Origin: an uncultured Acidimicrobiaceae bacterium
Lineage (GTDB): Bacteria; Actinomycetota; Acidimicrobiia; Spongiisociales; UBA5794
Direction: 5' to 3'
Assembly (NCBI GenBank): GCA_964397045.1
Contig: CAYNHF010000049.1
Span: 1,027-65,026 of the forward strand
DNA length: 64,000 bases
In this document: positions 1 through 62,387 of the stretch, piece after piece
Position numbering within the stretch: the stretch's first letter is position 1
Layout: each line of letters begins with the position of its first letter
Translations under genes and position numbers: made by a program
The notes under the pieces: model-generated
Seen by the model: the letters and a program-made list of their open reading frames with translations, nothing else
Databases searched by the model: none
What the model was told of the DNA's origin: nothing

Positions 1-1935
1 ACCGCGGCCCTGGCGATACCGGGGGTGGTAGCCGCCTACACGGCCGCGGACCTCCCGGGCGAACTCCGGGTGGGGATTATCCACACCGACTGGCCGGTCT
101 TCATCCCGGTTGGAGGCAGAACCTCGTACACCGGTGACGTGATCGCCATCGTCGTGGCAGAAGACGTCCAGACGGCCAGGGCCGCAGCAGATGCGATCAC
201 CGTCGAGTACAACGTCCTGGCACCGTTCACCGACCCGGCAGTCGCGGTCGCCGCCGCCGAGGACGCGGTCTGGGGACTCGATGGCAACGTCCTGTCGGTT
301 TCCAAATATGCCCGGGGCGATGTCGACGCGGCGCTGTCCACCTCGGCCCACACGGTGCACGAGGTCTTTTCGACACAACGTGTCGAACATGCCTTTCTCG
401 AACCCGAGTCAACCCTTGCCGTACCTGATCCCGACGGTCCGCTCCTCGTGTACTCGGGCGGGCAGGGCGTGTGGGACGACCGCAATCAGATTGCATCCGC
501 GCTCGGTCTGGAGACCGAAAAGGTCGTGGTCGAACTGGTATCGAACGGGGGTGCGTTCGGGGGTAAGGAAGACATGTCGAACCAGGCGCAAACGGCGCTG
601 GCCGCGCACCTTCTCGGAGTCCCCGTGAAGTGCACCTTGACTCGCGAGCAATCACTGCACATGCATCCGAAGCGACACCCGGTCCGGGTGGAGGTGTGGG
701 CCGGCTGTGACGAGGCGGGCAAGCTGAGCGCGTTGCGGGCCAGGATGCTTGGCGATTCTGGCCCGTATGCCTCCGTCGGCATGAAGGTCCTCGAACGAGC
801 AGCCGGCCATGCCAGCGGGCCCTATCTGTTCCCCAACGTCGATGTCGAGTCGGTCGCGGCTCGCACCAACAACTCCGTGTGCGGAGCCTTTCGCGGATTC
901 GGTGCCAACCAGGCCCAGTTCGCGACCGAAGGGGTGCTCGACCGGCTGGCGGATGCCGTCGGGATCTCAGGCTGGGAGATGCGGTCGCGCAACGTGGTCG
1001 AGCCGGGAGCGGTGTGGGGCCCTGGCCAAATCATGGATTCAGGAAGCGCCGGTGCCAGGCAGTGCCTGGACGCGGTCAAGCCCGCCTACGACGCGGCGCG
1101 GCGCGAAGGCAAGGCCGTCGGCCTGGGCCTGGGCCTGAAGAACTCGGGGCTCGGCAACGGCTTCGTCGAGGTGGCCCGAGCCGTCGTGCGGTTCGACGAG
1201 GACGGCACGATCGAGGTGCGCCACTGCTGGACGGAGATGGGCCAAGGTATTCACACCGTGGCCCGCCAGGTGGCGGTCGAGGAACTCGGCGTCGACCCGG
1301 AGCGGGTCAAGGTGATCGTGGATACCACCCGAGAATTCGGTGCGGGCCAGACCACCGGAAGCCGCGGCACCTTGATGGGATCCGGGGCGGTCAAGGACGC
1401 ATGCCGGGTGGCCAGGGAGAACGGCTTGGCGCCGGGCGTCGATCATGTCGGCGAATACCGGGTCGACTGGACCAATTCACTCGAAGAAGGGGTGGAGAAC
1501 CCGATTATCCACTCCGCCTTCGGCTACGCGGCGCAGTTGGTGATCGCAGACAAGGCCACCGGGTCGATCGAGCGGGTTGTCGCCGCCCACGACGTGGGAA
1601 AGGCGATGAATCCGCTGTTGTGCGAGGGCCAGATTGAAGGTGCGGTTCACATGGGTCTCGGTTACGCCCTGAGCGAGGACTTTCCGTGTGATGAGGAGGG
1701 GCGACCGGTCAACCTGACGCTGCGCTCGCTCGGAATCATCCGGCCGAAGGATGTACCGCAGGTGGAAGTGATCCTGGTGGAGGTGCCGCAGCCCGACGCT
1801 CCTTACGGGGTGAAGGGGGTCGGCGAGATCGGGCTCGTCCCGACTGCGGGTGCGGTCGCCGCCGCCTTCCGGGAGGTAGACGGGAAATGGCGGAGGGACC
1901 TTCCGCTGCTGGCACACGAGCCCCTGGAAGTGTGA
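1..1935 (+). CDS. Xanthine dehydrogenase / aldehyde oxidase family molybdopterin-binding subunit, 5'-truncated by the window edge
   Basis: The reading frame is open from base 1. The translation matches the middle and C-terminal parts of Mo-hydroxylase large subunits (a/b-hammerhead region AAYTAADLPG...DVIAIVVAED, then the MoCo-binding domains). It is paralogous to the complete 745-aa subunit at 6863..9100, and about 100 N-terminal residues are missing. Confidence 0.85.
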   Translation, partial: TAALAIPGVVAAYTAADLPGELRVGIIHTDWPVFIPVGGRTSYTGDVIAIVVAEDVQTARAAADAITVEYNVLAPFTDPAVAVAAAEDAVWGLDGNVLSVSKYARGDVDAALSTSAHTVHEVFSTQRVEHAFLEPESTLAVPDPDGPLLVYSGGQGVWDDRNQIASALGLETEKVVVELVSNGGAFGGKEDMSNQAQTALAAHLLGVPVKCTLTREQSLHMHPKRHPVRVEVWAGCDEAGKLSALRARMLGDSGPYASVGMKVLERAAGHASGPYLFPNVDVESVAARTNNSVCGAFRGFGANQAQFATEGVLDRLADAVGISGWEMRSRNVVEPGAVWGPGQIMDSGSAGARQCLDAVKPAYDAARREGKAVGLGLGLKNSGLGNGFVEVARAVVRFDEDGTIEVRHCWTEMGQGIHTVARQVAVEELGVDPERVKVIVDTTREFGAGQTTGSRGTLMGSGAVKDACRVARENGLAPGVDHVGEYRVDWTNSLEEGVENPIIHSAFGYAAQLVIADKATGSIERVVAAHDVGKAMNPLLCEGQIEGAVHMGLGYALSEDFPCDEEGRPVNLTLRSLGIIRPKDVPQVEVILVEVPQPDAPYGVKGVGEIGLVPTAGAVAAAFREVDGKWRRDLPLLAHEPLEV

Positions 1936-1942
1936 GGACACG

Positions 1943-2965
1943 ATGACGTCGGTCACTCCCGGTCTGGTCTGTGCCCACCATCACCTCTACTCGGTGCTGG
2001 CACGCGGCATGCCTGCGCCGCCGAGGACCCCGCAGAACTTCCTCGAGATTCTGGAGCAGATCTGGTGGCGCCTCGATCGAGCGCTCGACCTCGACATGCT
2101 CTACTGGTCGGCGAAGCTGGGTGCGCTCGAAGCACTCGAGTCCGGCACTACGGCCATCATCGACCACAACGAGACGCCCAATGCCATCGAGGGGAGCCTC
2201 GACGTCATTGCCAGGGCTTGTGCCGAGGTCGGCGTACGAGTGGTGTGCGCCTACGGTGTGAGCGACCGCAACGGGGCGGAAGGTGCGCAGCGAGGGCTCG
2301 AGGAGAACCAGCGCTTCCTCTCCGCAGGCGGGCGTGGTCTCGTCGGGATCCACGCTGCGTTCACGTGCTCAGACGACTTGCTGGCCGCCGCCTCGGAACT
2401 GGCGCGCGGTCAGGGTGTCGGCGTCCATATCCATGTTGCAGAGGGGATCGAAGACATCGATGCCCCTGCTCGGTTGGAAGGCCTCACCGAAGCGAGCTGG
2501 CTGCTGGCGCATTGTGTCCACCTGCCCACGGAGAACGCGCTTACGGGCACGATCCTCCACAACCCCCGGTCGAATCTGAACAACGCGGTCGGGTACGCCG
2601 CTCCGGCTCGTTTCGCTCAGCCGGTGGCGCTGGGAACAGATGGCATCGGGGCCAATGTGCTCGAGTCCATGCGTCTTGCCTACGCCATGGCCCGCTCGGT
2701 TGATGTCACCTCGACCCCGGATGAGGCTTGGGAATGGCTGGAGGAAGGCTGGAATCTCGTGCCGGAGGCGCGCGACGACCGGGTGACCTGGTCGTACGAA
2801 CCGATGGATCCTTGGTACGTGGCTTTCACTCCGGGAATCCGTCCGCTCGAGGTGGTGGTCGACGGAGAGACCGTCCTCGACGAAGGGGTGGCAACGAAGG
2901 TCGAGGCTTTGGAGATACGCGCCAAAGCCGCAGAGCAGGCAAAGCGATTGCACGCGAAGTTGTGA
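1943..2965 (+). CDS. ssnA: SsnA-like cyclic amidohydrolase (chlorohydrolase/aminohydrolase superfamily), lacking the usual N-terminal beta-sandwich
   Basis: The HxH metal motif sits at residues 11-13 (VCAHHHLYSVLARG). There is a long colinear match to E. coli SsnA as I recall it (WWRLDRAL, IIDHNETP, EENQRF, HNPRSNLNN, LGTDG). A GAGGA RBS lies upstream of the ATG at 1943, and the stop of the upstream gene is 8 nt before it. Confidence 0.6.
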   Translation: MTSVTPGLVCAHHHLYSVLARGMPAPPRTPQNFLEILEQIWWRLDRALDLDMLYWSAKLGALEALESGTTAIIDHNETPNAIEGSLDVIARACAEVGVRVVCAYGVSDRNGAEGAQRGLEENQRFLSAGGRGLVGIHAAFTCSDDLLAAASELARGQGVGVHIHVAEGIEDIDAPARLEGLTEASWLLAHCVHLPTENALTGTILHNPRSNLNNAVGYAAPARFAQPVALGTDGIGANVLESMRLAYAMARSVDVTSTPDEAWEWLEEGWNLVPEARDDRVTWSYEPMDPWYVAFTPGIRPLEVVVDGETVLDEGVATKVEALEIRAKAAEQAKRLHAKL

Positions 2966-2981
2966 GAAGAGGAGGGTTGCG

Positions 2982-4802
2982 ATGTCCAATGTGAGCACCA
3001 CCGAGCTCAGGCCTCCGGAAGCGGCACCACTCACGCCGTATCCGCTCGACGTCCTTCTCGGCCGCATCGTCGAAGAATGGGAGACCAGGCAGCGCATCTT
3101 CGATCTCCTGAAGGCGCGCATCTACAAGGCAGGCACCGGGCCCGATCTGTCCATCGACTTCATGGGTCGCAAGGCGGCCACCCCGCTCGGCCCCGCCGCC
3201 GGGCCCCACAGCCAGTTGGCGGAGAACATCGTGCTCGGGTGGCTCGCCGGAGCACGTCTGTTCGAGTTGAAGACGGTCCAGATTCTCGACGAGCTCGAGA
3301 TCGCACGGCCCTGCATCGACATGCAGACCATCGGCTACAACATCGAGTGGAGCCAGGAACTGAAGATCCCGCAGTCTCTCGAGGAATACGTGAAGGCCTG
3401 GATGATCATCGACATCATCAAGGACTGGGAGCCGGTGAAGCAGCTCGTGGGCGATACGCCGGGGCCGCACATCTTCGACATTTCCGTGGGGTACGACCTT
3501 GCAGGAATCTCCACCCCAGAGGTGGGGGGGTTCATCGACCGCATGATGGACGCCACTGCCGAGATCGATCGACTCCGGCCGTCGATCCCTGAGCCGTTCA
3601 CCGCGTACCGCGACTACGCGTTTGACCCGAGAGTTGCGAGCACGGCCACGCTGTCAACGTTCCACGGATGTCCACCAGACGAGATCGAGGCCATCACCAA
3701 ACACCTGATGACGCGCCACGGCCTAGACGTGATCGTGAAGCTGAACCCGACGCTGCTGGGTTACGAGAAGGTGGACGAAATCATTCACGACCGCCTCGGC
3801 TACGACTACGTGCGGCTGGTGCGCGACGCCTTCGACGAAGACCTGCAGTTCCCCAGGGCACTGGAGTTGATCGGCGAATTGGGCGACTTCGCAGCCGCGC
3901 AGGGGCGCCGCTTCGGTATCAAGCTGACCAACACGCTGGTGGTGGAGAACCACAAGGGTTTCATGCCTGAGGAACGTATGTATCTATCCGGTGCCCCACT
4001 CCACACGCTGGCGATCAGCATCCTCAACGAGCTGGTCACGGCGCTTCCCGGCACATTCGCCGTCGGGAGTGCGACGTCTGGTGCACAGGTGAGTTTTTCG
4101 GCAGGGGTGAGCAAGGACAACGTCACGGACGCGGTGGGACTCGGGCTGGCGCCGGTGACGGTGTGCTCCGACCTGCTCAAGCCCGGCGGCTACGGCCGAA
4201 TCGCTCCGATGCTCAAGGAGCTGGAGAAGACACTCAGCGCAGCCGACTGCAGCTCGGTCGCTGAGTGGAGGGCAAGCCGCCACGATGCCGCGGTCGCAGC
4301 CGGCTATCGCGATGCGATCGAGGCGCACACGGTGGCGATCACAGCTGCCGCCGCGGGCAATCCGTATGCCGCGATCGCCAATGCCAAGCTGCCGCGAGAG
4401 GTGGATCACACGCTCGAGATGTGGGGCTGCGTGGCCTGCAACTTCTGTGTGACGGTGTGCCCCAACAACGCGGTCCTCAAGCTGAAGACTCCGGAGGACA
4501 TGGAGCAACTGGAAGACCGCTGGCAGTACTTCATTCTGGCCGAGTTGTGCAACGAGTGCGGCAACTGCATGGTGTTCTGTCCCGAGGTCGGCGACCCGGC
4601 GAAGATCAAGCCCCGTCTGTTCATCGACGACGATCGGTTCGCGCTCGAATCGGCGCAAGCACAGGCGTTTCTCATAACAGAAGGCGGCGCCGGTGCCTTC
4701 ACAGTGACCCCGACGGAAGCAACGGATAGCGAGGCAGAGACGCTCGCAACGATCCTCAATTCTGCGGAAGGTCTGCCGCTGGCGAAGGCGTCGCCGGGGT
4801 GA
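2982..4802 (+). CDS. DHOD/PreA-like TIM-barrel flavoprotein with C-terminal 2x[4Fe-4S] ferredoxin domain (YgfK N-terminal-like), plus a ~100-aa C-terminal extension
   Basis: The N-terminal region resembles the class-1 dihydroorotate / dihydropyrimidine dehydrogenase fold (TPLGPAAGPHSQLAENIVLGWLAGARLFELKTVQ). It carries two CxxCxxCxxxCP clusters (CVACNFCVTVCP, CNECGNCMVFCP). A strong RBS GAGGAGGG precedes the ATG at 2982. Confidence 0.5.
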   Translation: MSNVSTTELRPPEAAPLTPYPLDVLLGRIVEEWETRQRIFDLLKARIYKAGTGPDLSIDFMGRKAATPLGPAAGPHSQLAENIVLGWLAGARLFELKTVQILDELEIARPCIDMQTIGYNIEWSQELKIPQSLEEYVKAWMIIDIIKDWEPVKQLVGDTPGPHIFDISVGYDLAGISTPEVGGFIDRMMDATAEIDRLRPSIPEPFTAYRDYAFDPRVASTATLSTFHGCPPDEIEAITKHLMTRHGLDVIVKLNPTLLGYEKVDEIIHDRLGYDYVRLVRDAFDEDLQFPRALELIGELGDFAAAQGRRFGIKLTNTLVVENHKGFMPEERMYLSGAPLHTLAISILNELVTALPGTFAVGSATSGAQVSFSAGVSKDNVTDAVGLGLAPVTVCSDLLKPGGYGRIAPMLKELEKTLSAADCSSVAEWRASRHDAAVAAGYRDAIEAHTVAITAAAAGNPYAAIANAKLPREVDHTLEMWGCVACNFCVTVCPNNAVLKLKTPEDMEQLEDRWQYFILAELCNECGNCMVFCPEVGDPAKIKPRLFIDDDRFALESAQAQAFLITEGGAGAFTVTPTEATDSEAETLATILNSAEGLPLAKASPG

Positions 4803-5398
4803 GCGGGAGACGTCTTCCGCTGCGCACCGAACTCGTCCTGCCGGACTGGTTCGCCGACGTGGAGGTACCGGAGTCCAGCGACGGGGACGAGGCTCGAATG
4901 GCGTTTGTGGTCGACCTGGCGCGGCGCAACGTTGAGCACGGCACCGGCGGCCCTTTCAGCTCTGCAGTGTTCTCTCTCGAAGAGGGAGCACTGGTGTCGG
5001 TTGGAGTCAACCTCGTCGAGCCGAGCCTGGCTGCGATCGCGCACGCCGAGATCGTCGCGATCGCACTCGCGGGCCGAGCGCTCGGATCTTTCGACTGCGG
5101 AGCGCGCGGGCCAACCGAACTCGTCGCGTCGACCGAGCCGTGTGCGATGTGCCTCGGCGCTGTCCCGTGGTCCGGGGTGGAGCGACTGGTGTGCGGGGCC
5201 AGCGATGCGGATGCGCGGGCGGTTGGGTTCGACGAGGGCAACAAGCCGGCAGGCTGGGAGCGGCTGCTGGAGAAGCAAGGAATCGAGGTCGTGACCGGGG
5301 TGCTGCGAGACTTGTCGGTGTCGGTGCTCACCGACTACGCCGCGGGCGGAGGCACGATCTACAACAGCGGTACGGCGGAAGGGGTGCGCGGTGCATGA
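4799..5398 (+). CDS. CDA-fold zinc deaminase, guanine deaminase (GuaD)-like
   Basis: HAE...PCxxC zinc-binding signature (AHAEIVAIALAG ... TEPCAMCLGAVPWSG) with a colinear match to B. subtilis GuaD. The GTG start overlaps the upstream stop (GTGA); an alternative ATG at 4895 is possible. Confidence 0.7.
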   Translation: MSGRRLPLRTELVLPDWFADVEVPESSDGDEARMAFVVDLARRNVEHGTGGPFSSAVFSLEEGALVSVGVNLVEPSLAAIAHAEIVAIALAGRALGSFDCGARGPTELVASTEPCAMCLGAVPWSGVERLVCGASDADARAVGFDEGNKPAGWERLLEKQGIEVVTGVLRDLSVSVLTDYAAGGGTIYNSGTAEGVRGA

Positions 5399-6866
5399 GG
5401 TTCAGGTAGCGGGAGTCGGGGTGGCGGAGCACGCCACCGTCGCCTCTGTGGATGAGGCGCTGCAACTTCTCGCCGAATCCGGGGAAGCGGCGCGCCTGGT
5501 TGCCGGCGGCACCGATCTCCTGCTCGAACTTGCCCGCAACGTTCGCCCCGGTATCACCAGACTCATCGATATCAGCCGGGTTCCCGGGCTCGCCAGTATC
5601 GGAGTCGACGCAGACAGAACCGTGCACGTCGGCCCCCTGGTGACGCACAACGACGCGGTCGCCTCGCCCCTGCTGCGAGAAAGCGCGCTGCCGCTGGCGC
5701 AGGCGTGCTGGGAGGTGGGGTCGCCGCAGTTGCGCAACCGGGCCACCATCGCCGGAAACCTCGTGACCGCCAGTCCTGCCAACGACACCATCTCGGCTTT
5801 GCGAGCCCTCGGTGCCGACGTCACACTGCAGTCGGTGCGGGGGGAGCGCACGGTGGCACTGCGAGATTTCTACACCGGGGTGCGCCGGACAGTGATGCAG
5901 CAGGACGAGATGCTGGTAGACATCTCGTTTCCTGCGATGACGCCTGCGCAGCGGGGCATTTTCGTCAAGCTTGGGCTGCGGCGGGCCCAGGCGATCTCGG
6001 TGGTTCACCTCGCGATCGTCGGCGAGTTCGAAGGGGCCAAGGTGACGAAAGCTACGATCGCGCTCGGCAGCGTGGCTCCGACCATCGTCACCGCAGACGC
6101 CGCAGCCGACATGCTGGTCGGCTCCGAACTCGATGAGACGACGATCGAACGAGCCGCAGCCGCGGCCGGTGCGCTACCTACTCCAATCGACGATCTGCGG
6201 GCAACCGCCGAGTATCGGGCTGAGTTGATACCCACCATGGTCACCCGGGGGCTGCGAGCACTACGAGACGGGACCGAGGCAGCCCACCTGCCTGCGACTC
6301 CGGCGCGATTGGCGCCGCACCCGGTAGCCGCCACGGCGACGTCCGCACGGCATGGTCAGACAGAGCCGGTGGTGGCCACGGTGAACGGACTCACCATCGA
6401 GGCACCGGGAGCCGCCGGGGTGACGCTCCTCGACTGGCTCCGAGACGTGGCGGCACCTGAGGCGGCGGCTTCGCTGTATGGCACCAAGGAAGGTTGTGCC
6501 GAGGGTGAATGCGGTGCTTGCACCGTGGTGCTCGACGGCGCCGCGGTGATGGCGTGCCTGGTGCCTGCCGCCCGCGCCCATCGCGCCGAAGTCATCACCA
6601 TCGAGGGGCTGCGAGACCCATCCGATCCGGACCGGTTGCACCCACTTCAGCAGGCGTTCGTAGATCAGGGTGCTGTGCAATGTGGCTTCTGCATTCCCGG
6701 CTTCCTGATGTCGGGTGCGATGCTGCTCGACGAGTTTCCGGAGCCCACTGCGGACCAGGTGCGTCAGGGTTTTGCGGGCAACCTGTGTCGCTGCACCGGC
6801 TACTACAAGATGTTCACCGCGGTCGACCAGGCAGCCCGTGACCTCGCGGCGGGGGGGCGGTCATGA
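5391..6866 (+). CDS. Fused molybdenum-hydroxylase FAD-binding subunit (CoxM/XdhB-like) and [2Fe-2S] subunit (CoxS/XdhC-like)
   Basis: The N-terminal ~290 aa is a CO-dehydrogenase flavoprotein-type domain (LVAGGTDLLLEL, AGNLVTASPANDT). The C-terminal part has plant-type and second 2Fe-2S motifs (CAEGECGACTVVLDG, CGFCIPGF, CRCTGY). The GTG start overlaps the upstream stop, and its own stop overlaps the next ATG (ATGA). Confidence 0.85.
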   Translation: MHEVQVAGVGVAEHATVASVDEALQLLAESGEAARLVAGGTDLLLELARNVRPGITRLIDISRVPGLASIGVDADRTVHVGPLVTHNDAVASPLLRESALPLAQACWEVGSPQLRNRATIAGNLVTASPANDTISALRALGADVTLQSVRGERTVALRDFYTGVRRTVMQQDEMLVDISFPAMTPAQRGIFVKLGLRRAQAISVVHLAIVGEFEGAKVTKATIALGSVAPTIVTADAAADMLVGSELDETTIERAAAAAGALPTPIDDLRATAEYRAELIPTMVTRGLRALRDGTEAAHLPATPARLAPHPVAATATSARHGQTEPVVATVNGLTIEAPGAAGVTLLDWLRDVAAPEAAASLYGTKEGCAEGECGACTVVLDGAAVMACLVPAARAHRAEVITIEGLRDPSDPDRLHPLQQAFVDQGAVQCGFCIPGFLMSGAMLLDEFPEPTADQVRQGFAGNLCRCTGYYKMFTAVDQAARDLAAGGRS

Positions 6867-9100
6867 CGGTTGGTGCTTCCTCGACCCGCATCGACGCCCC
6901 GGGAAAGGTCACCGGAGCCACGCGGTATCCCGCCGACCTGGCTCACGACGGCCTGCATGCTCAGGTCGTCTTCACCGACCAGCCGCATGCCCGGATGCTG
7001 AGTATGGATCTCACCGCGGCACGGGCGGTGCCCGGGGTTGTTGAAATCTTCACCGCGGCCGACGTGCCGGTGAACGAGTACGGGCTGACCATGTTCGATC
7101 AGCCCGTCTTCGTAGGGGTCGGCGCAACCGGCCGCAGCGAGGTTCCCTCCGACGTGAGCAGGTGGGAGGCGGATCACGTCGCCCTCGTCGTTGCGGAGAC
7201 ACCTGCCGCTGCCAACAAGGCAGCCGGTGCGATTGCGATCGAATGGGAGCCGTTGCGCCTTGTTGCCGACCTGGATGCGGCACTGAATGGCTCGACCCTG
7301 GTGCACCCTGAAAACGGCATTGGATCCAACATCTATGTGCACCAGAGGATCCGGAAGGGTGACGTCGCCGCGGCCTGGGAGCGAGCCGAGGTGATCATCG
7401 AAGGCACCTACGAGCTGCCCCATCAAGAGCATGCCTACCTGCAACCGGAAGCCGCCGTCAGCTACGTCGATGAACAGGGGCGGGTGACGGTCGAGATTGC
7501 CGGTCAATGGACCCACGAGGACCAGGAACAGATCGCCCACGCCCTCGATCTACCCGCGGAACAGGTCCGAGTGATCTACCCGGCGATCGGCGGCGCGTTC
7601 GGTGGTCGCGAGGACATGACGCTGCAGATCGTGATGGCACTGGCCTCATGGCGGCTCGCGGAGCGTGGCGAGCTGCGCCCGATCCGCACCACTTGGTCGC
7701 GCGAGGAGAGCATCGTCGGACATCACAAGCGACACCGTGGTCGGATCCACACCCGGTGGGGAGCGACCCGGGAGGGTGAACTGATCGTCGTCGAGGCGGA
7801 CGCGTATCTCGACGCCGGTGCCTACAACTACACCACGAACAAGGTGCTCGGCAATCTCCACCTCAGCGTTGCGGGCCCCTACCGGGTGCCGAATGCGCGT
7901 ATTGACAGCATGGGGGTCTACACCACCTCCGTCCCCGGTGGCGCGTTCCGGGGGTTCGGTGCGCCGCAGGGGGCGTTTGCTGCCGAGAGCCAGATGAACA
8001 AGCTGGCCGCTGAGCTCCAAATGGACCCGGTCGAGCTCCGCCTGAAGAACGCGCTGCGCGAGGGGAGCATCGGGATCACGATGGTGGAGATGCCCGCGGG
8101 CGTGAGTCTTCCTACGGTCATCGAGGAGTGCGCCGTAGCGTCGAGCTGGTCGACGCCACGGGAGCCGGTTCCAACGTTTCGCCCCTTTCAATCGCTTCCC
8201 GCGGAGCCCGGTGCGATTCGGATCGGCAGGGGGTTTGCGTGCTCCTACAAGAATGTCGGCTTCTCGTTCGGTTTCCCGGAGAACTCCACGGCACGGATCG
8301 AACTCGAGGGGGACACGGCCATCGAACTGGTGCGCCTCTTCTATGCCGGGGCAGACGTCGGTCAGGGTGGCCACACTGCATGGATCCAGATGGCCGCGGA
8401 AGCGACCGGAGTCGACCCGGAGCTGGTCCAGGCAGAGTTCTCCGACACTGCGTCAGCGGACAACTCGGGCTCGGCTTCGGCATCCCGGCTCACCTGGATG
8501 ACAGGCAACGCGATCCTCGGGGCCGCCGAAGAAGCAGGCAAAGCGTGGGTCGATGGTGACCGCCCCGCGATCGGCGACTTCAAGTTCGTCCCGCCTCCAA
8601 CCCAGGCACTCGACCCAGACACCGGGTTCGGCCAGCCGAACTTCGCGTACGGATACGTGGCAGAGGCAGTCGAGGTCGCGGTCGACATCGAAACCGGGCA
8701 CGTCGAGGTCCGCGATGTCACCTGCGCGGTCGACGTCGGGAAGGCGATCAACCCGAACCTGGTCGAGGGCCAGATCGAGGGAGCCGTGGTCCAGGCCCAC
8801 GGGTACGCCGTCACCGAGAACCTCCAGGTTGCCGAGGGACGAGTCCTGAATCCGCGACTGTCGACGTATCTCATCCCGGGAATCATGGACATTCCGGTCC
8901 GGGTGCACAGTGTGATCGTGGAGGAGCCAGACCCGCGGGGTCCGTGGGGAGCCAGGGGCATGGCCGAGATGCCGTTCATACCGTTCGCACCCGCCGTGGT
9001 CGCCGCGCTCTACGACGCGACCGGTGTCTGGTTCCACGGGTTCCCGCTAACGCCCCCACGAGTCAGGGCTGCCTTGGTCGCGGCAGGCGTCACCGGCTGA
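6863..9100 (+). CDS. Xanthine dehydrogenase family molybdopterin-binding subunit (complete, 745 aa)
   Basis: Full-length Mo-hydroxylase large-subunit architecture (N-terminal a/b hammerhead, GGAFGGRED-type MoCo motifs, C-terminal dimerisation domain). It is translationally coupled to the FAD/Fe-S gene. Confidence 0.9.
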   Translation: MTVGASSTRIDAPGKVTGATRYPADLAHDGLHAQVVFTDQPHARMLSMDLTAARAVPGVVEIFTAADVPVNEYGLTMFDQPVFVGVGATGRSEVPSDVSRWEADHVALVVAETPAAANKAAGAIAIEWEPLRLVADLDAALNGSTLVHPENGIGSNIYVHQRIRKGDVAAAWERAEVIIEGTYELPHQEHAYLQPEAAVSYVDEQGRVTVEIAGQWTHEDQEQIAHALDLPAEQVRVIYPAIGGAFGGREDMTLQIVMALASWRLAERGELRPIRTTWSREESIVGHHKRHRGRIHTRWGATREGELIVVEADAYLDAGAYNYTTNKVLGNLHLSVAGPYRVPNARIDSMGVYTTSVPGGAFRGFGAPQGAFAAESQMNKLAAELQMDPVELRLKNALREGSIGITMVEMPAGVSLPTVIEECAVASSWSTPREPVPTFRPFQSLPAEPGAIRIGRGFACSYKNVGFSFGFPENSTARIELEGDTAIELVRLFYAGADVGQGGHTAWIQMAAEATGVDPELVQAEFSDTASADNSGSASASRLTWMTGNAILGAAEEAGKAWVDGDRPAIGDFKFVPPPTQALDPDTGFGQPNFAYGYVAEAVEVAVDIETGHVEVRDVTCAVDVGKAINPNLVEGQIEGAVVQAHGYAVTENLQVAEGRVLNPRLSTYLIPGIMDIPVRVHSVIVEEPDPRGPWGARGMAEMPFIPFAPAVVAALYDATGVWFHGFPLTPPRVRAALVAAGVTG

Positions 9101-9147
9101 CGGTTGGCCCCTATCTGCCGTGGTCGCCGGCATGCCAGGATGGACCC

Positions 9148-9951
9148 ATGGGCAACCCGGAACAGAGTCGAGCCCGGACGAATCGAGCTCGCGGCATCTC
9201 GGTACGGCCGTTTCCCGCCCGCCGCAAGGCGGTGCTTCAGGCGATGCGGGTGGGCAGGCGCATGGCGCCGATGCATGGACTACTCGACGTTGATGTGACG
9301 CGTGCCGTGCGGCGGGTGTCCGATGCAGAAGAACCTGCCAGCTTCACGGCGTTCATCGTGGCGGCGGTGGCTCGCGCTGCGGCAGAGCACCCCGAGGTCC
9401 ACGCCTACCGGGACTACCGCGGCCGGCTGGTGACACACGGCCATGTCGATGTGACGACGATGATCGAAGTGCCTACGGTCGACGGCGCGTTTCCGCTCGG
9501 CCACGTCATCCGTGACGCGGATGTGAGGTCGGTTGCCGACATCACACGCGAGCTGCGAGGTGTCCAGGCAGATCCGGCTTCGAGTCCGAGCGGGTACCTG
9601 CTTCAGCGCGTCGGCGGCGTGGCATCGCGGGTCCCCTTCTTCTTCGGCGCCTTCTATCGCGTCGCGGCTCGGTCGCGTCGTATCCGCGCCTCGATCGGTA
9701 CCGTTGCAGTGACTTCGGTGGGCATGTTCGGGGGTGGTAGTGGCTTTGGGATCGGTGTCCCTACGGTGATGACACTCACTGTTCTGGTTGGGGGGCGCAG
9801 CCGGAGGCCCAGGGCCGTCGGGGACGTAGTGGAATTGCGCGACGTCTTGGATCTCACCATCACCATCGATCACAACGTCGTAGACGGCGCTCCGGCGGCC
9901 CGGTTTGGCGCCGAGTTGCGGCGAAGACTCGAGACGGCAGACCTTCCCTAG
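9148..9951 (+). CDS. Stand-alone 2-oxoacid dehydrogenase E2-type acyltransferase catalytic domain protein (no lipoyl or E3-binding domains)
   Basis: Carries the catalytic-domain signature DHNVVDGAPAARF (DHRxxDG(A)xAARF) plus upstream conserved blocks (MHGLLDVDVT, VPTVMTLTVL). I chose the ATG at 9148 inside the longer 8944 ORF because the sequence upstream of it overlaps the Mo-subunit gene. Confidence 0.65.
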   Translation: MGNPEQSRARTNRARGISVRPFPARRKAVLQAMRVGRRMAPMHGLLDVDVTRAVRRVSDAEEPASFTAFIVAAVARAAAEHPEVHAYRDYRGRLVTHGHVDVTTMIEVPTVDGAFPLGHVIRDADVRSVADITRELRGVQADPASSPSGYLLQRVGGVASRVPFFFGAFYRVAARSRRIRASIGTVAVTSVGMFGGGSGFGIGVPTVMTLTVLVGGRSRRPRAVGDVVELRDVLDLTITIDHNVVDGAPAARFGAELRRRLETADLP

Positions 9952-10118
9952 TGAATCGTTGCCCGAGGGGGGTGGCCCAGCGCGATCGGCCCTTCGGATT
10001 TCCTGCCAGAATGGGATCTCCCGGCGTTCACGGCCTCTCTGCGGTCGCGCCGGATCTTGTCACGGGCGCCCGGGCCCCTCCCGGGATCGGACTGTTGGAA
10101 TGTTCGGAGGAACACACA

Positions 10119-11068
10119 TGAGGAGCTTCGCAGGCAGAGACATCTTGTCACTGAAGGATATGGAACGAGCCGAGTTCTTCCACATCTTCGATGTCGCTGC
10201 CGAACTCGAACCAATCGCACGAGAGCGACGCAACGTCGATCTCCTTGCAGACAAGACGCTGGTCACCGCCTTCTATCAGCCATCGACCCGAACCCGGTTG
10301 GCTCATGAGGCCGCCATGCATCGCCTCGGCGGCGCCGTCCTCGGGTTCTCAGACGCCAAGATGACCAGGGCAGGCGACTTCTACCAGGAGTCGATCAAAG
10401 ACACCGTCCACATGCTCGAGTATTACGGCGACGTCATGGTCATGCGCCACTTCCAGCAGGGGGCGCCCCAGGAAGCCGCCCGCTGGGCGAGCATCCCGGT
10501 GATCAATGCCGGCGACGGCTGGGGTGAGCACCCGACCCAGGTGTTGACCGACCTGTACACCATCTTGCAGGAGAAGGGCACCATCGACGGCTTGAAGATC
10601 GTGTGCATCGGGGACATGCGGATGCGCACCATGCATTCCATCGGCTACGCCCTGAGCCAGTTCGACGCCGAGGCGATCTTCATCGCCCCGCCTGAGATGA
10701 ACCTCACCGATGAATTCAAAGAGGAACTCGTTGCCAAGGACACCAACTTCCGCGAGGCGGAGCACATCATGGACGTGATCGGCGAGGCGGACGTCGTCTA
10801 CATGGAGCCCGTGGTGCAGCCCGACTACACGAAGCCGCGCGATGAGAGAACCGGCGATATCGGACTCACCCCGGACAACTACAAGGTGACCCGCGAAGTC
10901 ATGAAGAGCGCCAAGAGCGACGCCATCGTGCTCCATTCCTTGCCCCGCATGGATGAGCTGCTCATGGACGTAGACGAGACCCGCCACGCCCGCTATTGGG
11001 AAGAGGCGTTCTACGGCGTCGTCATGCGCATGGCGCTGCTGTCGCTGGTGCTCGGCGCCGCCGAGTGA
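10119..11068 (+). CDS. Aspartate carbamoyltransferase (PyrB)-like transcarbamylase, ~316 aa
   Basis: STRTR, HPTQ and HSLPR motifs, and colinear similarity to E. coli PyrB along the whole length (PSTRTRLAHEAAMHRLGGAVLGFSD; INAGDGWGEHPTQVLTDLYTI; VLHSLPRMDEL). GGAGGA RBS 6 nt upstream of the ATG at 10119. It is not in a pyr-operon context. Confidence 0.75.
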
Positions 11069-11132
11069 GCCGAGTGAGCCGGGCGGCGAGCTGCCGCACC
11101 CCGACCATCTGGTATTGAGAGAGGAAATAGAC

Positions 11133-12107
11133 GTGCAAACAGGCTTGCGTGGTCGTGACATGATCACGACCCAGGAATGGACCAAGAACGAACTCGATAC
11201 CGTGCTGGACGTGGCGCTCGATCTCAAGCGCCGCAGGGCGCTCGGCGAGCTCCATCCGCTGCTGCGGGACAAGGTGCTTGCCATGTTGTTCTTCTTCTCC
11301 TCGACCCGCACCCGTGCCAGCTTCGAGGCCGGGGTGGCTCAGCTCGGGGGGCACGCCCAGTTCATCGAGTCGAAGAGCACCCAGATCTCCCACGGCGACA
11401 CCGCGAAGGAGATCGGCGACATCCTCGGCCGGTACAACGACGGCATTGCCATCCGGCAGGTCGACTGGGGAGTGGGCAACGGCTACATCCGCGACGTGGC
11501 TGCGGCCTCCCGCACCCCGGTGTTGAACATGCAGTGTGACTGGTACCACCCGTTCCAGGCGTTGGCTGATCTGCTCACGATCATCGAGTACAAGGGCGAC
11601 CCGCGGGGCCTCACGATCGACGTCAGCTGGGCCTACGCCGACAGCTATCAGAAGCCGTTGAGTGTTCCCCAGAGCCTCATCACGCTGATGACCCGCTACG
11701 GGATGAACGTGCGGCTGACCCGGCCGCCCGAGTTCAAGCTCATGCCGGAGGTGATGGCCCAAGCGGAGGCCAATGCCGCAGCTGCAGGCGGCTCCTTCGA
11801 GGTCGTCGAAGACTTCGATGCCGGGTTCCGGGATGCAGACGTGGTGTACGCCAAGAGCTGGGGCGCCATGCTCACGACGACAGATGACGAGGATTCGGCG
11901 CAGATCGGGGCGCAGTACACCGACTGGATCACAGACGAGCGGCGCATGGCGCTGGCTAAGCCGGACTCGATGTATATGCACCCGCTGCCTGCCGATCGCA
12001 ACATCGAGGTGACGGACGCGGTGATCGACGGACCCAATAGCGCCGTCTTCGATGAGGCGGAGAATCGGCTCCATGTACAGAAGGCGGTAATGGCGCTCAC
12101 CATGTGA
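11133..12107 (+). CDS. ygeW: YgeW-like transcarbamylase (knotted ATC/OTC-superfamily carbamoyltransferase of purine-ureide catabolic clusters)
   Basis: SSTRTRASFE, NMQCDWYHPFQ, WAYADSYQKPLSVPQSLITLMTRYGMNV and MHPLPADRN blocks match my memory of E. coli YgeW. The start is uncertain: TTG at 11115, GTG at 11133 (preceded by a GAGAGGAAA RBS) or ATG at 11160. Confidence 0.65.
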   Translation: MQTGLRGRDMITTQEWTKNELDTVLDVALDLKRRRALGELHPLLRDKVLAMLFFFSSTRTRASFEAGVAQLGGHAQFIESKSTQISHGDTAKEIGDILGRYNDGIAIRQVDWGVGNGYIRDVAAASRTPVLNMQCDWYHPFQALADLLTIIEYKGDPRGLTIDVSWAYADSYQKPLSVPQSLITLMTRYGMNVRLTRPPEFKLMPEVMAQAEANAAAAGGSFEVVEDFDAGFRDADVVYAKSWGAMLTTTDDEDSAQIGAQYTDWITDERRMALAKPDSMYMHPLPADRNIEVTDAVIDGPNSAVFDEAENRLHVQKAVMALTM

Positions 12108-12185
12108 GCGCTCCGCAGGCAACGGGACGGGGCAGTACAGCTCCGGCGGCGTGCGTACAACCGAGCAGCAAGTCTGGAGGACAGC

Positions 12186-13127
12186 GTGGCACGAAGAGCA
12201 GTAGTTGCGATCGGGGGAAACTCCCTGATCAGAGATGCAAGTCGGCAGAGTGTCGAGGATCAGTACCTCGCGGCTGCGGAGACCGATCACCACATCGCGG
12301 CGCTTATCCGCGAGGGGTGGGAGATCTGTATTACCCACGGGAACGGGCCTCAGGTTGGTTTCATCATGCGCCGCTCCGAGCTAGCGGCCCATGAGCTCCA
12401 CGAGGTGCCGCTCGAGGTATGCGTCGCAGACACCCAGGGAGCCATCGGCTACGCCCTGCAGCAGACGCTGGGGCATGACTTGAGCCGGCTCGGTATCGAA
12501 AAGGGGGTCGTGACCGTCGTCACGCAGGTCGAGGTCGACGAAAACGATCCTGCGTTCGCCAAACCGGGCAAGCCGATTGGGTCATTTCTCGACGAGGACA
12601 CTGCTGCACAACGGACCCTGGAGAACGGCTGGACCTGCATCGAAGACGCAGGGCGAGGCTGGCGTCGTGTCGTCGCCTCGCCGGCCCCGGTACGCGTGGT
12701 AGAGGCAGGCGCCATCAAGTTCCTGATGGACTCCGGATTCGTGGTGATTGCGGCAGGTGGCGGGGGGATTCCCGTGGCTGAGCGAGACGGTGATCTCGTG
12801 GGAGTGGCCGCGGTGATCGACAAGGACCTGGCGTCTGCTCTGCTCGCAGGCGATATCGGGGCGGACACGTTCCTCATTACGACGGCGGTCGAGCAGGTGG
12901 CGCTGAACTGGGGAACTCCAGAGCAGGAGTGGGTGAGCCACATGACACTCGACGAGGTCAAGGGATATCTCGCGGAGGGCGGCCACTTCGCAGAAGGGTC
13001 GATGGCGCCGAAGATGCGTGCGGTCGTACAGTTCCTCGAACAGGGCGGCCGCGAGGCCATCATCACCGATCCCGACAACATGCAACGCGCCATGGCAGGC
13101 GAGACCGGTACCCGGATCACTGCGTAG
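12186..13127 (+). CDS. arcC: Carbamate kinase
   Basis: Starts VVAIGGNSL and carries the HGNGPQVG motif of the amino-acid kinase fold of carbamate kinases. GTG start with GGAGGA RBS. Confidence 0.85.
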   Translation: MARRAVVAIGGNSLIRDASRQSVEDQYLAAAETDHHIAALIREGWEICITHGNGPQVGFIMRRSELAAHELHEVPLEVCVADTQGAIGYALQQTLGHDLSRLGIEKGVVTVVTQVEVDENDPAFAKPGKPIGSFLDEDTAAQRTLENGWTCIEDAGRGWRRVVASPAPVRVVEAGAIKFLMDSGFVVIAAGGGGIPVAERDGDLVGVAAVIDKDLASALLAGDIGADTFLITTAVEQVALNWGTPEQEWVSHMTLDEVKGYLAEGGHFAEGSMAPKMRAVVQFLEQGGREAIITDPDNMQRAMAGETGTRITA

Positions 13128-13306
13128 CTGCGCGGTCTGGCGACCGCACTTGCCCACATCTGCGCCGGCCGATGCAGGTGCCCGGAAAGGCGAAACCGCC
13201 TGATACCACTGCCGTTCGCCATGACCGCCTCCTCAAGCCTCCAGACACGAACGTCGATAGAGAGGTGACGGGTACCGAATCTGGTAGGCGAAGCGAGGTT
13301 GCTTGG

Positions 13307-18172: not shown

Positions 18173-18565
18173 ATGCCACGCCGGGTCCTCATCGCCAAAC
18201 CAGGCCTCGATGGCCACGACCGCGGGGCCAAGGTCGTGGCCAGAGCGCTGCGAGACTCCGGCTGCGAGGTCATCTACTCGGGACTGCATCAAACTCCTGA
18301 GCAAATCGTCGAAACCGCGCTCCAGGAAGACGTGTCCGGGGTTGGGCTCTCGGTGTTGTCCGGCGCTCACATGACCCTGTTTCCCCGCGTCGTCGAATTA
18401 CTGCGCGAGCGAGGTGCAGAGGACGTCGTGGTGTTCGGGGGCGGCATCATCCCCGACGACGACATTCCACTGCTGGAAGCGGCAGGCCTCGCTGCCGTCT
18501 TCACCCCCGGTACGCCACTCTCCGAGATCTCGGACTGGGTCGACAACAACCTGGACGAATACTGA
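18173..18565 (+). CDS. Cobalamin (B12)-binding domain protein, methylmalonyl-CoA mutase C-terminal-domain-like, stand-alone
   Basis: 130 aa. B12-binding Rossmann-like domain with the DxHxxG-type motif ([26 protein letters not shown]). No mutase large subunit is adjacent. Confidence 0.7.
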
Positions 18566-30134: not shown

Positions 30135-31124
30135 TCAGGCGTCTGCGGACGGCGCCGCGCCGATCCCGGCAGCGACGCGAGCTTCTTCGATCTCTCTGGC
30201 GCTTTCCTCGGCGGCGATCCGCTGTCGCTCCGCCCGTGCCTGACTGTCCAGGATGTCCTTGCGTCGCGCCCACATTGCCACCGAACCGAGGAAGATCAGG
30301 AACATCCCTCCGAGGGCAACGAAGTAGCCGGCGGCCACCTGGGTGTCGTCGTAGTCTGCAGTGGGGCCCTCGGCGGCCTCCACCTGTGCCTCAACCAGCG
30401 ACGTACGCATGGCACCCGCCATCGTCAGCATGATGATGGCCGCAAACACCACCATCAACACCAGCATGCGACTGGGTGCCAGCTTGCGCGGGGCGGCAGT
30501 CACCGAATAGGCAGCCATGATCAGGCCCGCGACGAGAACGGCGAACCACACTTCGAGCGCCACGTCGATGGTGTTGAACACCCAGATCAAGCCAAATGCC
30601 GACAGAACCATTGAGAGCACCCAGATGAGGAATCTTCCCGGTCCACGCTCCACGAGCAGCGGCGCTTCGCCGTGTTTGCCGATCTTCAGCGGCACTCCCA
30701 TGCTCCCACGGATGGTCCGTTCCAGGGCAGCCAGCCCGGGCCTGATGACCCGCGACAGCGCGGTGCCGGTGAAAAGGATGGTGATGACCCTGGCAAGAAG
30801 GCCGGCGAGCCCTTCGGTCACCTCTACTTGGTCTTCGCCGAAGATCAGGCCGATGACGACCCCGGCGCCGATCATGTAGAAGATGATCGCGATGCCGATC
30901 CCGAGTTTCTCCGAACCAGGCCACAGTACGAGGAGAACACCTGTGAGCAGGGCGATGCCGATAGCCATGTAGGCCCATCCGTTGACGAACTCGTGGGCCC
31001 GGAGAACCCAGGGGCTCACCAGGAAGCGGTAATCGGGTTTCATGCGCACCAGTTCCCACACGATGGTCTGGATCACGATGAGCGAACCGATGATCGCAAG
31101 AGCGCGGGTCCAGCTGGTAGTCAA
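30135..31124 (-). CDS. Integral membrane protein of unknown function with a charged coiled-coil-like C-terminal tail
   Basis: 329 aa with about 8 hydrophobic segments and a C-terminal RAERQRIAAEESAREIEEAR tail. I recognise no family. Confidence 0.4.
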   Translation of the reverse strand: MTTSWTRALAIIGSLIVIQTIVWELVRMKPDYRFLVSPWVLRAHEFVNGWAYMAIGIALLTGVLLVLWPGSEKLGIGIAIIFYMIGAGVVIGLIFGEDQVEVTEGLAGLLARVITILFTGTALSRVIRPGLAALERTIRGSMGVPLKIGKHGEAPLLVERGPGRFLIWVLSMVLSAFGLIWVFNTIDVALEVWFAVLVAGLIMAAYSVTAAPRKLAPSRMLVLMVVFAAIIMLTMAGAMRTSLVEAQVEAAEGPTADYDDTQVAAGYFVALGGMFLIFLGSVAMWARRKDILDSQARAERQRIAAEESAREIEEARVAAGIGAAPSADA

Positions 31125-31203
31125 CGTTGAGGGCCTCTCCTGGCGAGTGGACGTACTCTAATTGGTTTCTGAGCGCGGTTCCTGATGGGCGCCCTTCCCA
31201 CCT

Positions 31204-36248: not shown

Positions 36249-36418
36249 TTTCTCGATCGTCTCGGTTTGGTCTCGGCTACGCTTCGATAGCATCGTTTGA
36301 GACGTCCACGAAGGGTGCTGATGCCGGAGACCGCGCGTCCGCTGAGAGTCGATGACCAGGTCATTTGGCGCTCCGGCCGTGCGTGTTGTGGTTCAGTCGC
36401 CCACCAAGAGGAGTAGCC

Positions 36419-51605: not shown

Positions 51606-51646
51606 GGCGCCCGGGTCGACGTAATCTGAACGATTGACGTCCTAAG

Positions 51647-51674
51647 ACCCCCGTAATCCAAGGATTTCGGGGGT
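51647..51674 (+). terminator. Hairpin downstream of paaN (acccccg-N14-cgggggt) followed by a T-rich stretch
   Basis: 7-bp GC stem at 51647-51653 and 51668-51674, then tcgatccctattctct. Confidence 0.3.
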
Positions 51675-51718
51675 TCGATCCCTATTCTCTGCGTCATTCC
51701 ATAGAAAGGGAGGCAACC

Positions 51719-62218: not shown

Positions 62219-62387
62219 CCGGCCCCCGTCGAACCGGCGGAAACGCTGATTCGGGGCTGTGGCTCTGCCCGGCGACTGAGTCCTCGTCTTCTTGGCGGCG
62301 CTCCCTCAGGTGGGCTCCGCAGCACCCCGCGGCGGTATCGAGGACCGCGAGACGTTGGTCTCGAGCCGAGGGTGGGTATCGTGCCAG

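Follow-up and report, generated by a model that had tools for sequence, protein, structure and literature searches.

The reductive route by which bacteria degrade urate was reconstituted in 2025 by two groups (PMC12507026; bioRxiv 10.1101/2025.04.24.650524). Urate is converted to 2,8-dioxopurine by XdhD–YgfM or by the Clostridium enzyme XdhAC, the ring is then reduced by YgfK or UacX, and SsnA opens the reduced ring to ureidomethyl-hydantoin, from which HyuA produces 2,3-diureidopropionate. YgeW phosphorolyses one of the two ureido groups, with YqeA making ATP, YgeY hydrolyses the other, and YgeX converts diaminopropionate to pyruvate; which ureido group is attacked by YgeW is a point on which the two groups disagree. 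Here we describe a run of ten genes at positions 1–13127 of a 64-kb stretch of DNA (part of the 91,850-bp contig CAYNHF010000049.1; the whole stretch is referred to below as the window), which encodes relatives of several of these enzymes and which we read, with a probability of about 0.6, as an operon for a variant of this reductive (2,8-dioxopurine) pathway of purine and urate degradation.

According to the 2025 papers and a commentary that accompanied them (PMC12990295), the pathway is confined to bacteria that are obligate or facultative anaerobes; the open questions named there are where it comes from (a gut adaptation or ancient), what donates electrons to XdhAC and in which order the ureido groups are cleaved. 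A second line of work concerns the pseudo-ATCases, i.e. relatives of aspartate carbamoyltransferase (ATCase) defined by Barba et al. 2013 (PMC4016543). Only their subgroup 1 (Rubrobacter) has a demonstrated activity, that of a ureidoglycine carbamoyltransferase; the subgroup 2 member of Nocardioides sp. JS614 adjoins a ygeW homologue, xdhABC and hyuA. Both the type of pathway (2025) and the association of pseudo-ATCase, YgeW and xanthine dehydrogenase (XDH) genes in an actinobacterium (2013) are therefore known already. Full-text searches of a literature library found no description of an Acidimicrobiia-wide minimal triad (short SsnA, half YgfK and a YgfM-less molybdenum (Mo) enzyme of the TIGR03311 type), of its linkage to a module of two transcarbamylases and a carbamate kinase or of its abundance outside the gut. 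The view of the initial annotation of this DNA, that the chemistry of the ygf/yge cluster is incompletely assigned, is outdated, this chemistry having been fully assigned in 2025 (PMC12507026; bioRxiv 10.1101/2025.04.24.650524).

Compared with the clusters of E. coli, Clostridium sporogenes and C. difficile, the window holds homologues of the Mo hydroxylase, YgfK, SsnA, a YgeW-related transcarbamylase and carbamate kinase, all next to XDH and guanine deaminase functions, and the predicted chemistry shares with theirs the sequence of dehydroxylation, ring reduction, hydrolysis and ATP-coupled ureido cleavage. As in C. difficile, the Mo enzyme comes without YgfM and the reductase without a flavin adenine dinucleotide (FAD)/NAD(P)H domain. 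The differences, however, are considerable. The SsnA homologue lacks its first ~52 residues, YgfK persists as its N- and C-terminal parts instead of giving way to the PydA-like UacX, and the Mo enzyme is of the TIGR03311 type instead of a close XdhD relative. HyuA, YgeY, YgeX, YqeB/C and SelD are absent from the window, a second transcarbamylase (a pseudo-ATCase) is added, and guanine deaminase has the cytidine deaminase (CDA) fold rather than the amidohydrolase fold. Finally, the host is an Acidimicrobiia-like actinobacterium from the environment and no anaerobe of the gut.

All ten open reading frames (ORFs) lie in a row on the + strand, with a GC content at third codon positions (GC3) of 0.74–0.85 in each. 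They lie where the initial annotation had placed them. Families were called with Pfam and NCBIfam profiles, bit scores being compared with the cut-off of each model, and these calls reproduced its domain list almost exactly. Its description of the genes as mostly translationally coupled applies to genes 1–6, which are separated by only 7 and 16 nt or overlap by 4, 8 and 4 nt, but not to genes 6–10, which are spaced by 47, 166, 46 and 78 nt. Relatives of xdhD, ssnA and ygfK together with transcarbamylase and carbamate kinase genes, as it had proposed, were borne out by NCBIfam and by comparison with the E. coli proteins; a separate ygfM gene, which it had also counted in, does not exist here.

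The first three genes form the core triad. ORF1 (<1–1935, with its 3′ 644 codons inside the window; MoCoBD) encodes a Mo/2Fe-2S hydroxylase whose top NCBIfam family is TIGR03311 (‘selenium-dependent xanthine dehydrogenase’), with 597 bits over profile positions 220–841 of 848; its full-length relatives (74–80% identical) score 825–833 bits against a cut-off of 830.45. In same-strain (L001) and near-strain (L091, L097) contigs the full protein has ~861–866 amino acids (aa), starts ~0.6 kb upstream of the window edge and bears an N-terminal 2x[2Fe-2S] domain. Residues corresponding to bovine E802, R880 and E1261 are retained, and we propose ORF1 as the analogue of XdhD, i.e. a dehydrogenase interconverting urate and 2,8-dioxopurine (DOPDH). 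E606 of E. coli XdhD turned out to be unusable as a marker for ORF1, as it sits in an insertion that ORF1 does not have.

ORF2 (1943–2965, 340 aa) is an SsnA-like cyclic amidohydrolase which is 36% identical to residues 54–352 of E. coli SsnA and keeps all metal ligands (HxH, HxHxxE, H, D), whereas the first ~52 residues of SsnA and several loops are missing. It scores 243 bits with TIGR03314 (cut-off 455.5; profile positions 56–339 of 441), so that it would have escaped the IPR017700-based survey of PMC12507026, and its length of 340 aa is conserved in relatives. A description as a barrel-only SsnA was rejected, because the C-terminal segment still aligns with SsnA. ORF2 is proposed to open the ring of reduced 2,8-dioxopurine. 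ORF3 (2982–4802, 606 aa) is a half-YgfK, 39% identical to residues 5–406 and 31% identical to residues 898–1011 of E. coli YgfK, with no counterpart of residues 407–897, i.e. the pyridine-nucleotide/FAD part; with TIGR03315 it reaches 436 bits against a cut-off of 835. An AlphaFold (AF2) model computed from 20 homologues, with a predicted local distance difference test score (pLDDT) of 77.7, has its best matches in the flavin mononucleotide (FMN) barrels of pig dihydropyrimidine dehydrogenase (DPD) and of dihydroorotate dehydrogenase (DHOD). The earlier label of a PreA/DHOD-like Fe-S flavoprotein was right and can thus be made more precise. With its FMN TIM-barrel of the DPD/DHOD type and C-terminal 2x[4Fe-4S], ORF3 is a candidate 2,8-dioxopurine reductase. 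The old label ‘selenate reductase’ for YgfK-like proteins is not adopted here, since published data show selenate to be neither required nor stimulatory.

The half-YgfK form is very common, with thousands of homologues of ~590–610 aa. Of 8000 scored candidates, 7972 reached E<=1e-5, and the top 120 entries of the list are without exception ~580–615 aa long. From 80 GTDB genome loci retrieved through half-YgfK (related loci and contigs carry L numbers here), families were counted within +/-10 kb; as many of these contigs are short, all such counts are lower bounds. An ORF1-like Mo enzyme is found in 46 and a short SsnA in 49 of the 80, so that the triad is co-located in 46–49 loci, mostly from metagenome-assembled genomes (MAGs) of Acidimicrobiia. 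It also occurs in Myxococcota, Elusimicrobiota and Chloroflexota, there with a full-length SsnA. Co-conservation across relatives, as expected by the initial annotation, therefore holds, and the outcomes which it had named as refuting were not what we found. L022 (6890–10696, – strand) and L052 (2868–6674, – strand) encode a full-length YgfK (~1269 aa) in the same locus as half-YgfK, and a full-length YgfK of 1185 aa (L088, 1450–5007) is combined with a 340-aa SsnA in L088/L089; these combinations indicate that the truncations of SsnA and YgfK were independent events.

Genes 4–6 could supply the triad with substrate. ORF4 (4799–5398; PF00383) matches the Nitrosomonas protein NE0047 (PDB 2G84, deposited as ‘Cytidine and deoxycytidylate deaminase zinc-binding region’) with 151 bits and ~50% identity over 167 aa (residues 24–190), and B. 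subtilis guanine deaminase (1WKQ) with 59 bits, the similarity to NE0047 including its C-terminal extension. NE0047 is a characterised guanine deaminase of the CDA fold, and by these similarities ORF4 is classified as a guanine deaminase of the same type within the CDA superfamily. ORF5 (5391–6866) is a fused FAD/2x[2Fe-2S] subunit of XDH (FAD_binding_5, CO_deh_flav_C and Fer2_2 domains, with XdhB- and XdhC-like NCBIfam matches) and the sole carrier of an FAD domain in the operon. Its neighbour ORF6 (6863–9100; MoCoBD) is a PucD-like molybdopterin subunit, which scores 512 bits with TIGR03196 (pucD; cut-off 784) and keeps the GGRED, RH and AEMP motifs; a PDB sequence search with ORF6 did not tell XDH apart from other Mo hydroxylases. 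By its domain content the pair is a complete FAD/2Fe-2S/Mo hydroxylase, most like XDH of the PucD/XdhA type though below the curated cut-offs of these families. The CDA deaminase gene recurs in 9, and the FAD/FeS and PucD-like subunit genes in 13 each, of the 80 half-YgfK loci, and the three are adjacent to one another in 9–13 related loci. PnrA/Bmp-type ABC transporters adjoin the triad in ~10 loci and in the near strain L097.

The distal part of the operon encodes two transcarbamylases and a carbamate kinase. ORF8 (10118–11068, 316 aa; OTCace) passes the ATCase model TIGR00670 (264.2 bits, cut-off 236.95), and every annotation source names its family aspartate carbamoyltransferase. An alignment with the ATCases of P. 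abyssi and M. jannaschii shows STRTR, HPTQ and the counterpart of R167 to be retained, but TR(229)xQ(231)KER is replaced by EPVVQPDY, the 80s loop is remodelled from KKGE to FYQE with loss of K84, and HPLP has become HSLP. Thus neither the aspartate-binding residues R229/Q231 (RxQ) and K84 nor the HPLP motif are preserved. These changes are family traits, with HSLPR in 120/120 and EPV[VI]Q[AP]DY in 118/120 of the closest homologues, and the related loci carry them too. With STRT and HPTQ kept, the third motif altered and RxQ lost, ORF8 belongs, by its motifs, to the pseudo-ATCases as defined by Barba et al. (PMC4016543). The term PyrB-like in the initial annotation, which had listed ordinary pyrB among its refuting outcomes, hence stands for the profile match and fails at the level of residues. 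As the carbamoyl-phosphate site and the Arg that binds the alpha-carboxylate are kept while the binders of the beta-carboxylate are lost, the protein would suit an N-carbamoyl-alpha-amino acid whose side chain bears no carboxylate; 2,3-diureidopropionate or 3-amino-2-ureidopropionate would fit, and we propose that ORF8 phosphorolyses such a compound, at its 2-ureido group, to carbamoyl phosphate.

ORF8 shares with the pseudo-ATCases described before (PMC4016543) intact STRT and HPTQ, an H[ST]LP third motif, the loss of RxQ and the database label ATCase, and with subgroup 2 of Nocardioides sp. JS614 its position beside a YgeW-related transcarbamylase and XDH genes in an actinobacterium. The residues that stand in for RxQ (P-V-V, within EPVVQ[AP]DY), however, match none of the three published subgroup signatures exactly (AIA/AIS/SIA, GX[SC], VXP), hyuA is not near it, and it is linked to the SsnA/YgfK/XdhD triad, which was reported absent in Nocardioides (PMC4016543).

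ORF9 (11115–12107, 330 aa; OTCace) is a transcarbamylase that falls below all curated cut-offs, i.e. those for ornithine carbamoyltransferase (OTC; TIGR00658, 239.5/280.85 bits), N-acetylornithine carbamoyltransferase (AOTC; 254/288), YgeW (TIGR03316; 184/500) and putrescine carbamoyltransferase (PTC), and we leave it unclassified among these families. Its identity to E. coli YgeW, which is ~65 aa longer, is 36%, and the ornithine-binding DxxxSMG is replaced by AKSWGAM, as in AOTC. The earlier designation as YgeW-like is too narrow, ORF9 being equally close to OTC and AOTC. We propose that it phosphorolyses the second (3-)ureido group, an assignment based on albizziin being the lower homologue of citrulline and on ORF9 being of the OTC/YgeW type. 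ORF10 (12186–13127), finally, exceeds the cut-off of TIGR00746 (arcC; 370.3 versus 358.25 bits), is 49% identical to E. coli YqeA and is, by this profile, a bona fide carbamate kinase, converting carbamoyl phosphate and ADP to ATP. With two OTCace proteins and a carbamate kinase above its cut-off, the locus encodes, as far as sequence can tell, the coupling of carbamoyltransferase to ATP formation that belongs to the pathway.

The trio recurs in different gene orders. It lies downstream of XDH in the window and in the near strains L091/L092, whereas L006, L013, L041 and L066 have it upstream of the triad. In L088/L089 it follows a divergent Bmp transporter (with short SsnA, full-length YgfK and a three-subunit XDH), and in L087 (Anaerolineaceae) its neighbours are an adenine deaminase gene, a gene for a GuaD-like amidohydrolase and one for a GntR regulator. 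All four independent contexts of the ORF8 family that were examined hold an OTC-like gene, carbamate kinase and purine genes; linkage that persists through such rearrangement is good evidence of shared function. In L087, the pseudo-ATCase gene is separated from the OTC-like and carbamate kinase genes by two ORFs of 695 and 651 aa without Pfam match (11014–13101 and 13105–15060), which could encode reduction or ring-opening enzymes of another variant. Pseudo-ATCases from MAGs named Acidimicrobiia and Anaerolineae/Anaerolineales are each 77–82% identical to ORF8. Values this high are unusual between phyla and point to the trio having been transferred horizontally, to very strong constraint or to mis-binning.

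If these assignments are taken together, a pathway can be proposed in which the substrates are assigned by homology to characterised E. coli and Clostridium enzymes and by chemical logic, and in which the order of the steps is likewise conjectural. Guanine would be deaminated to xanthine by ORF4, and hypoxanthine and xanthine would be oxidized to urate by the ORF5/ORF6 XDH. ORF1 would then remove the 6-oxo group of urate, the resulting 2,8-dioxopurine would be reduced by the half-YgfK ORF3, and the shortened SsnA ORF2 would open the reduced ring, whereas the second ring opening would depend on an enzyme encoded outside the genes of the window. Both ureido groups of 2,3-diureidopropionate would leave by phosphorolysis, not hydrolysis, and each carbamoyl phosphate would yield ATP through ORF10. 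That ORF8 takes the alpha-ureido and ORF9 the beta-ureido group is the more tentative part of this scheme, a specific division of labour to which we give somewhat less than an even chance. The initial annotation had supposed a distinct pathway ending in ATP formation driven by carbamoyl phosphate; features of a new variant are indeed present, but such ATP formation is already part of the known pathway.

The route of the electrons is similarly a matter of conjecture. ORF1 and ORF3, which have no NAD(P)H/FAD modules of their own, are probably fed through Fe-S partners, and the XDH flavoprotein ORF5 is possibly the source. As oxidation of hypoxanthine to urate yields four electrons and the two reductive steps use four, an internal Fe-S electron circuit is conceivable. 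A bolder version of the scheme, in which probably aerobic Acidimicrobiia run a self-contained pathway, supplied with Fe-S electrons by XDH, redox-neutral from hypoxanthine, with phosphorolysis of both ureido groups and two ATP per purine, appears unlikely, with a chance of perhaps a quarter. The description of the background as apparently aerobic in the initial annotation finds nothing in the window that shows aerobic life.

Several observations weigh against a reductive purine pathway at this locus. The identity of ORF1 to E. coli XdhD is only 27%, and with the insertion that bears it ORF1 also lacks E606, which has been proposed to orient urate. Both ORF2 and ORF3 score well under the cut-offs of the SsnA and YgfK families. 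No reductant-binding module is encoded for the reductive enzymes. A separate GltD-like NAD(P)H module for half-YgfK was not found in the window, and among the related loci only the full-length YgfK paralogues of L022 and L052 would provide one. The window (E<=1e-3) contains no homologue of HyuA, YgeX or YgeY, as the initial annotation had noted, and none of YqeB, YqeC, MocA or YgfM. These hydrolytic and terminal enzymes may be encoded elsewhere in the genome, but in the ~80 related loci searched HyuA was found in 2, YgeY in 1 and YgeX in 13, which leaves one obligatory step of the known pathway without a candidate. Enzymes of TIGR03311 are called selenium-dependent, yet YqeB, YqeC and SelD are found neither in the window nor in nearly all related loci within +/-10 kb, with SelD missing from all of ~95 loci. 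The transcarbamylase trio stands beside half-YgfK in only 4 of the 80 loci, and most relatives carry carbamoylase-like CN_hydrolases in its place. One of these, of ~310 aa, occurs in ~29 loci, and a second one, similar to N-carbamoylputrescine amidase, is also frequent. The copy of the former in L096 has a FPELALTTFFPRW stretch, which is presumably that of N-carbamoyl-D-amino-acid hydrolases. L013, however, holds both the trio and a CN_hydrolase, so that one system may not simply take the place of the other.

Three other explanations have to be weighed against the same evidence. The triad might degrade another N-heterocycle, such as a pyrimidine, a pterin, 8-oxoguanine, a nicotinate-like compound or a methylxanthine, by the same logic of dehydroxylation, reduction and hydrolysis. 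ORF1 not being of the E. coli XdhD type and lacking E606, the shortening and low scores of the SsnA and YgfK homologues, the absence of HyuA from the window and the uncharacterised pyridoxal phosphate (PLP) enzymes and CN_hydrolases added in relatives would all be in line with this, but the steady company of guanine deaminase, XDH, PnrA/Bmp transporters and adenine deaminase, and the presence in 13 loci of homologues of YgeX, the terminal enzyme of the known pathway, make it improbable. Reductive pyrimidine degradation (PydA/PreAT dihydropyrimidine dehydrogenase, PydB dihydropyrimidinase, PydC beta-ureidopropionase) is a comparable system: ORF3, like PreA, combines a DPD/DHOD-fold FMN barrel with C-terminal 2x[4Fe-4S], ORF2 is a cyclic amidohydrolase, and the CN_hydrolases of many relatives complete a Pyd-like module. 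In sequence, however, ORF3 and ORF2 resemble YgfK and SsnA rather than PreA and PydB, there is no PreT-like partner, the neighbours are purine-specific, and ureido cleavage in the window is proposed to be phosphorolytic.

It is quite improbable, in our view, that the genes are three unrelated neighbours, i.e. a purine salvage and oxidation operon (genes 1–6), an inserted acyltransferase, and ordinary pyrB/argF/arcC genes without a connection of the transcarbamylases to purines. This would account for the pass of the ATCase model by ORF8 (264 versus 237 bits) and its universal label, for the 166-nt gap and the inserted gene between genes 6 and 8 and for the rarity of the trio at half-YgfK loci. 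The losses of RxQ and K84, however, are consistent throughout the 120 homologues and correspond to the definition of a pseudo-ATCase (PMC4016543), ORF9 lacks DxxxSMG and stays below the OTC cut-off, no arcA, pyrC or carAB is nearby, and the four independent contexts each retain the company of purine genes. The arginine and agmatine deiminase pathways share with this locus a catabolic transcarbamylase and carbamate kinase for substrate-level ATP formation, but no deiminase is found here, and ORF9 scores under the cut-offs for both OTC and PTC. As a further alternative, the transcarbamylases might serve the oxidative route, with allantoate and Pi giving ureidoglycine and carbamoyl phosphate, or act on oxalurate, while the triad has another purpose. 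The precedent is the actinobacterial pseudo-ATCase Rxyl_2847, which has ureidoglycine carbamoyltransferase activity and lies in a purine cluster with carbamate kinase (PMC4016543). Yet Rxyl_2847 belongs to subgroup 1 (HPLA; AIA/AIS), whereas ORF8 has HSLP and a different substitution, and the trio repeatedly stands beside the triad of the reductive pathway. Moreover, Pfam/NCBIfam annotation of the large ORFs of the window shows no uricase, HIU hydrolase, OHCU decarboxylase or allantoinase; these families were also unseen among the annotated neighbours in a few related loci, although no search was aimed at them there. We consider this alternative very improbable.

The locus, together with its relatives, bears on each of the open questions mentioned above. 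With respect to origin, thousands of homologues in Acidimicrobiia MAGs from marine, sediment, aquifer and other environments mean that the core triad is abundant outside the gut; if the bolder version of the scheme is true, a pathway of ‘gut anaerobes’ would be an old and widespread environmental one. A naturally minimal YgfK and a Mo enzyme without reductant modules are suitable objects for the question of the electron donor. For ureido cleavage, the pairing of an ATCase-derived with an OTC-like enzyme amounts to a natural experiment that could show which group is the target of each type of enzyme, and the bolder version would give this subgroup of pseudo-ATCases its first physiological role. 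The locus also draws attention to a large family whose annotation as aspartate carbamoyltransferase is systematically wrong.

In relatives, further genes accompany the triad. A fold-type-II PLP protein of ~485–490 aa is found in ~22 of the 80 loci, Myxococcota and Elusimicrobiota included (e.g. L066, 7494–8966; L088, 14373–15848; L004, 17041–18498); its PF00291 match is weak, in NCBIfam it is CysK/CBS/SbnA-like, and a ThrC-like PLP protein of ~420 aa often adjoins it. The larger protein is a candidate member of the pathway, for example for beta-elimination from a 3-substituted alanine. Just upstream of the Mo-enzyme gene, L004 (4928–5522, – strand), L005 (5652–6301, – strand) and ~15–19 other loci carry a divergent pair of genes for an HTH_22 protein and a small Thiamine_BP (PF01910) protein, likely a regulator/ligand-binding pair of the cluster.

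ORF7 (9148–9951, 267 aa, with a revised start at 9148), by contrast with its treatment as an added pathway gene in the initial annotation, is a recent strain-specific insertion and is probably outside the pathway. It is a stand-alone E2-type acyltransferase catalytic domain (PF00198, 72 bits; DHNVVDG for the motif DHxxxDG) without lipoyl or subunit-binding domain, and the E2 equivalog models remain far below their cut-offs. In L091/L092, whose pseudo-ATCase is 97% identical to that of the window, the PucD stop runs straight into the leader of the pseudo-ATCase gene, so that the window has an extra ~850 bp holding ORF7, and the gene is present in none of the 80 related loci. Its family of stand-alone E2 catalytic domains is common in Actinomycetes, and in the one other context examined the neighbours were unrelated.

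The start of ORF8 was also revised, to 10118, where it follows a GGAGGA ribosome-binding site. The ~150-nt leader upstream is kept only in near-identical strains and not in L013, L041, L066, L087 or L088, and Rfam gave no match at the gathering threshold anywhere in the window, while 9900–10200 stayed empty even at E<=10; a regulatory RNA at this position was therefore dropped as a candidate. A consensus scan for promoters and terminators in 8900–13600 gave nothing above shuffled expectation and thus neither backs nor refutes co-transcription.

At the other end the cluster reaches past coordinate 1, as indicated by near-strain L097, in which a same-strand ABC-transporter permease gene (BPD_transp_2) lies directly upstream of the ORF1 counterpart; L091 and L097 provide ~0.7 kb of upstream sequence, comprising an intergenic stretch and the 3′ end of the permease gene. 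Probably, then, the window contains most of one operon of an Acidimicrobiia-like actinobacterium, in the order ABC transporter followed by the ten genes. Exact look-ups with ORF2 and ORF6 yielded no record, and a metagenome scan with a 32-nt XdhD pattern matched only relatives that are ~71–73% identical. In L002, a same-strain JGI contig, positions 1–~300 bear no relation to the corresponding part of L001 and L091, which points to an assembly chimera or to a rearrangement inside the Mo-enzyme gene.

The actinobacterial host proposed at the outset agrees with the genes downstream, where a CheA-like hybrid kinase is followed by pcrA, sucCD, purN, purH, folD, icd, mdh and sdh, in a housekeeping order typical of Actinomycetota. 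Acidimicrobiia MAGs also provide the nearest named homologues of ORF3 and ORF8. The hybrid kinase (~13130–15829, + strand; Hpt, HATPase_c, CheW-like and receiver domains) stands right after carbamate kinase as an orphan, with no other chemotaxis genes near it. Between pcrA and sucC, a stand-alone B12-binding domain protein of 130 aa is encoded (18173–18565, + strand), with no mutase large subunit in view. Farther downstream, four sizeable ORFs of high GC3 (30135–31157, – strand; 36356–37345, 51638–52423 and 62280–63998, + strand) have no Pfam match.

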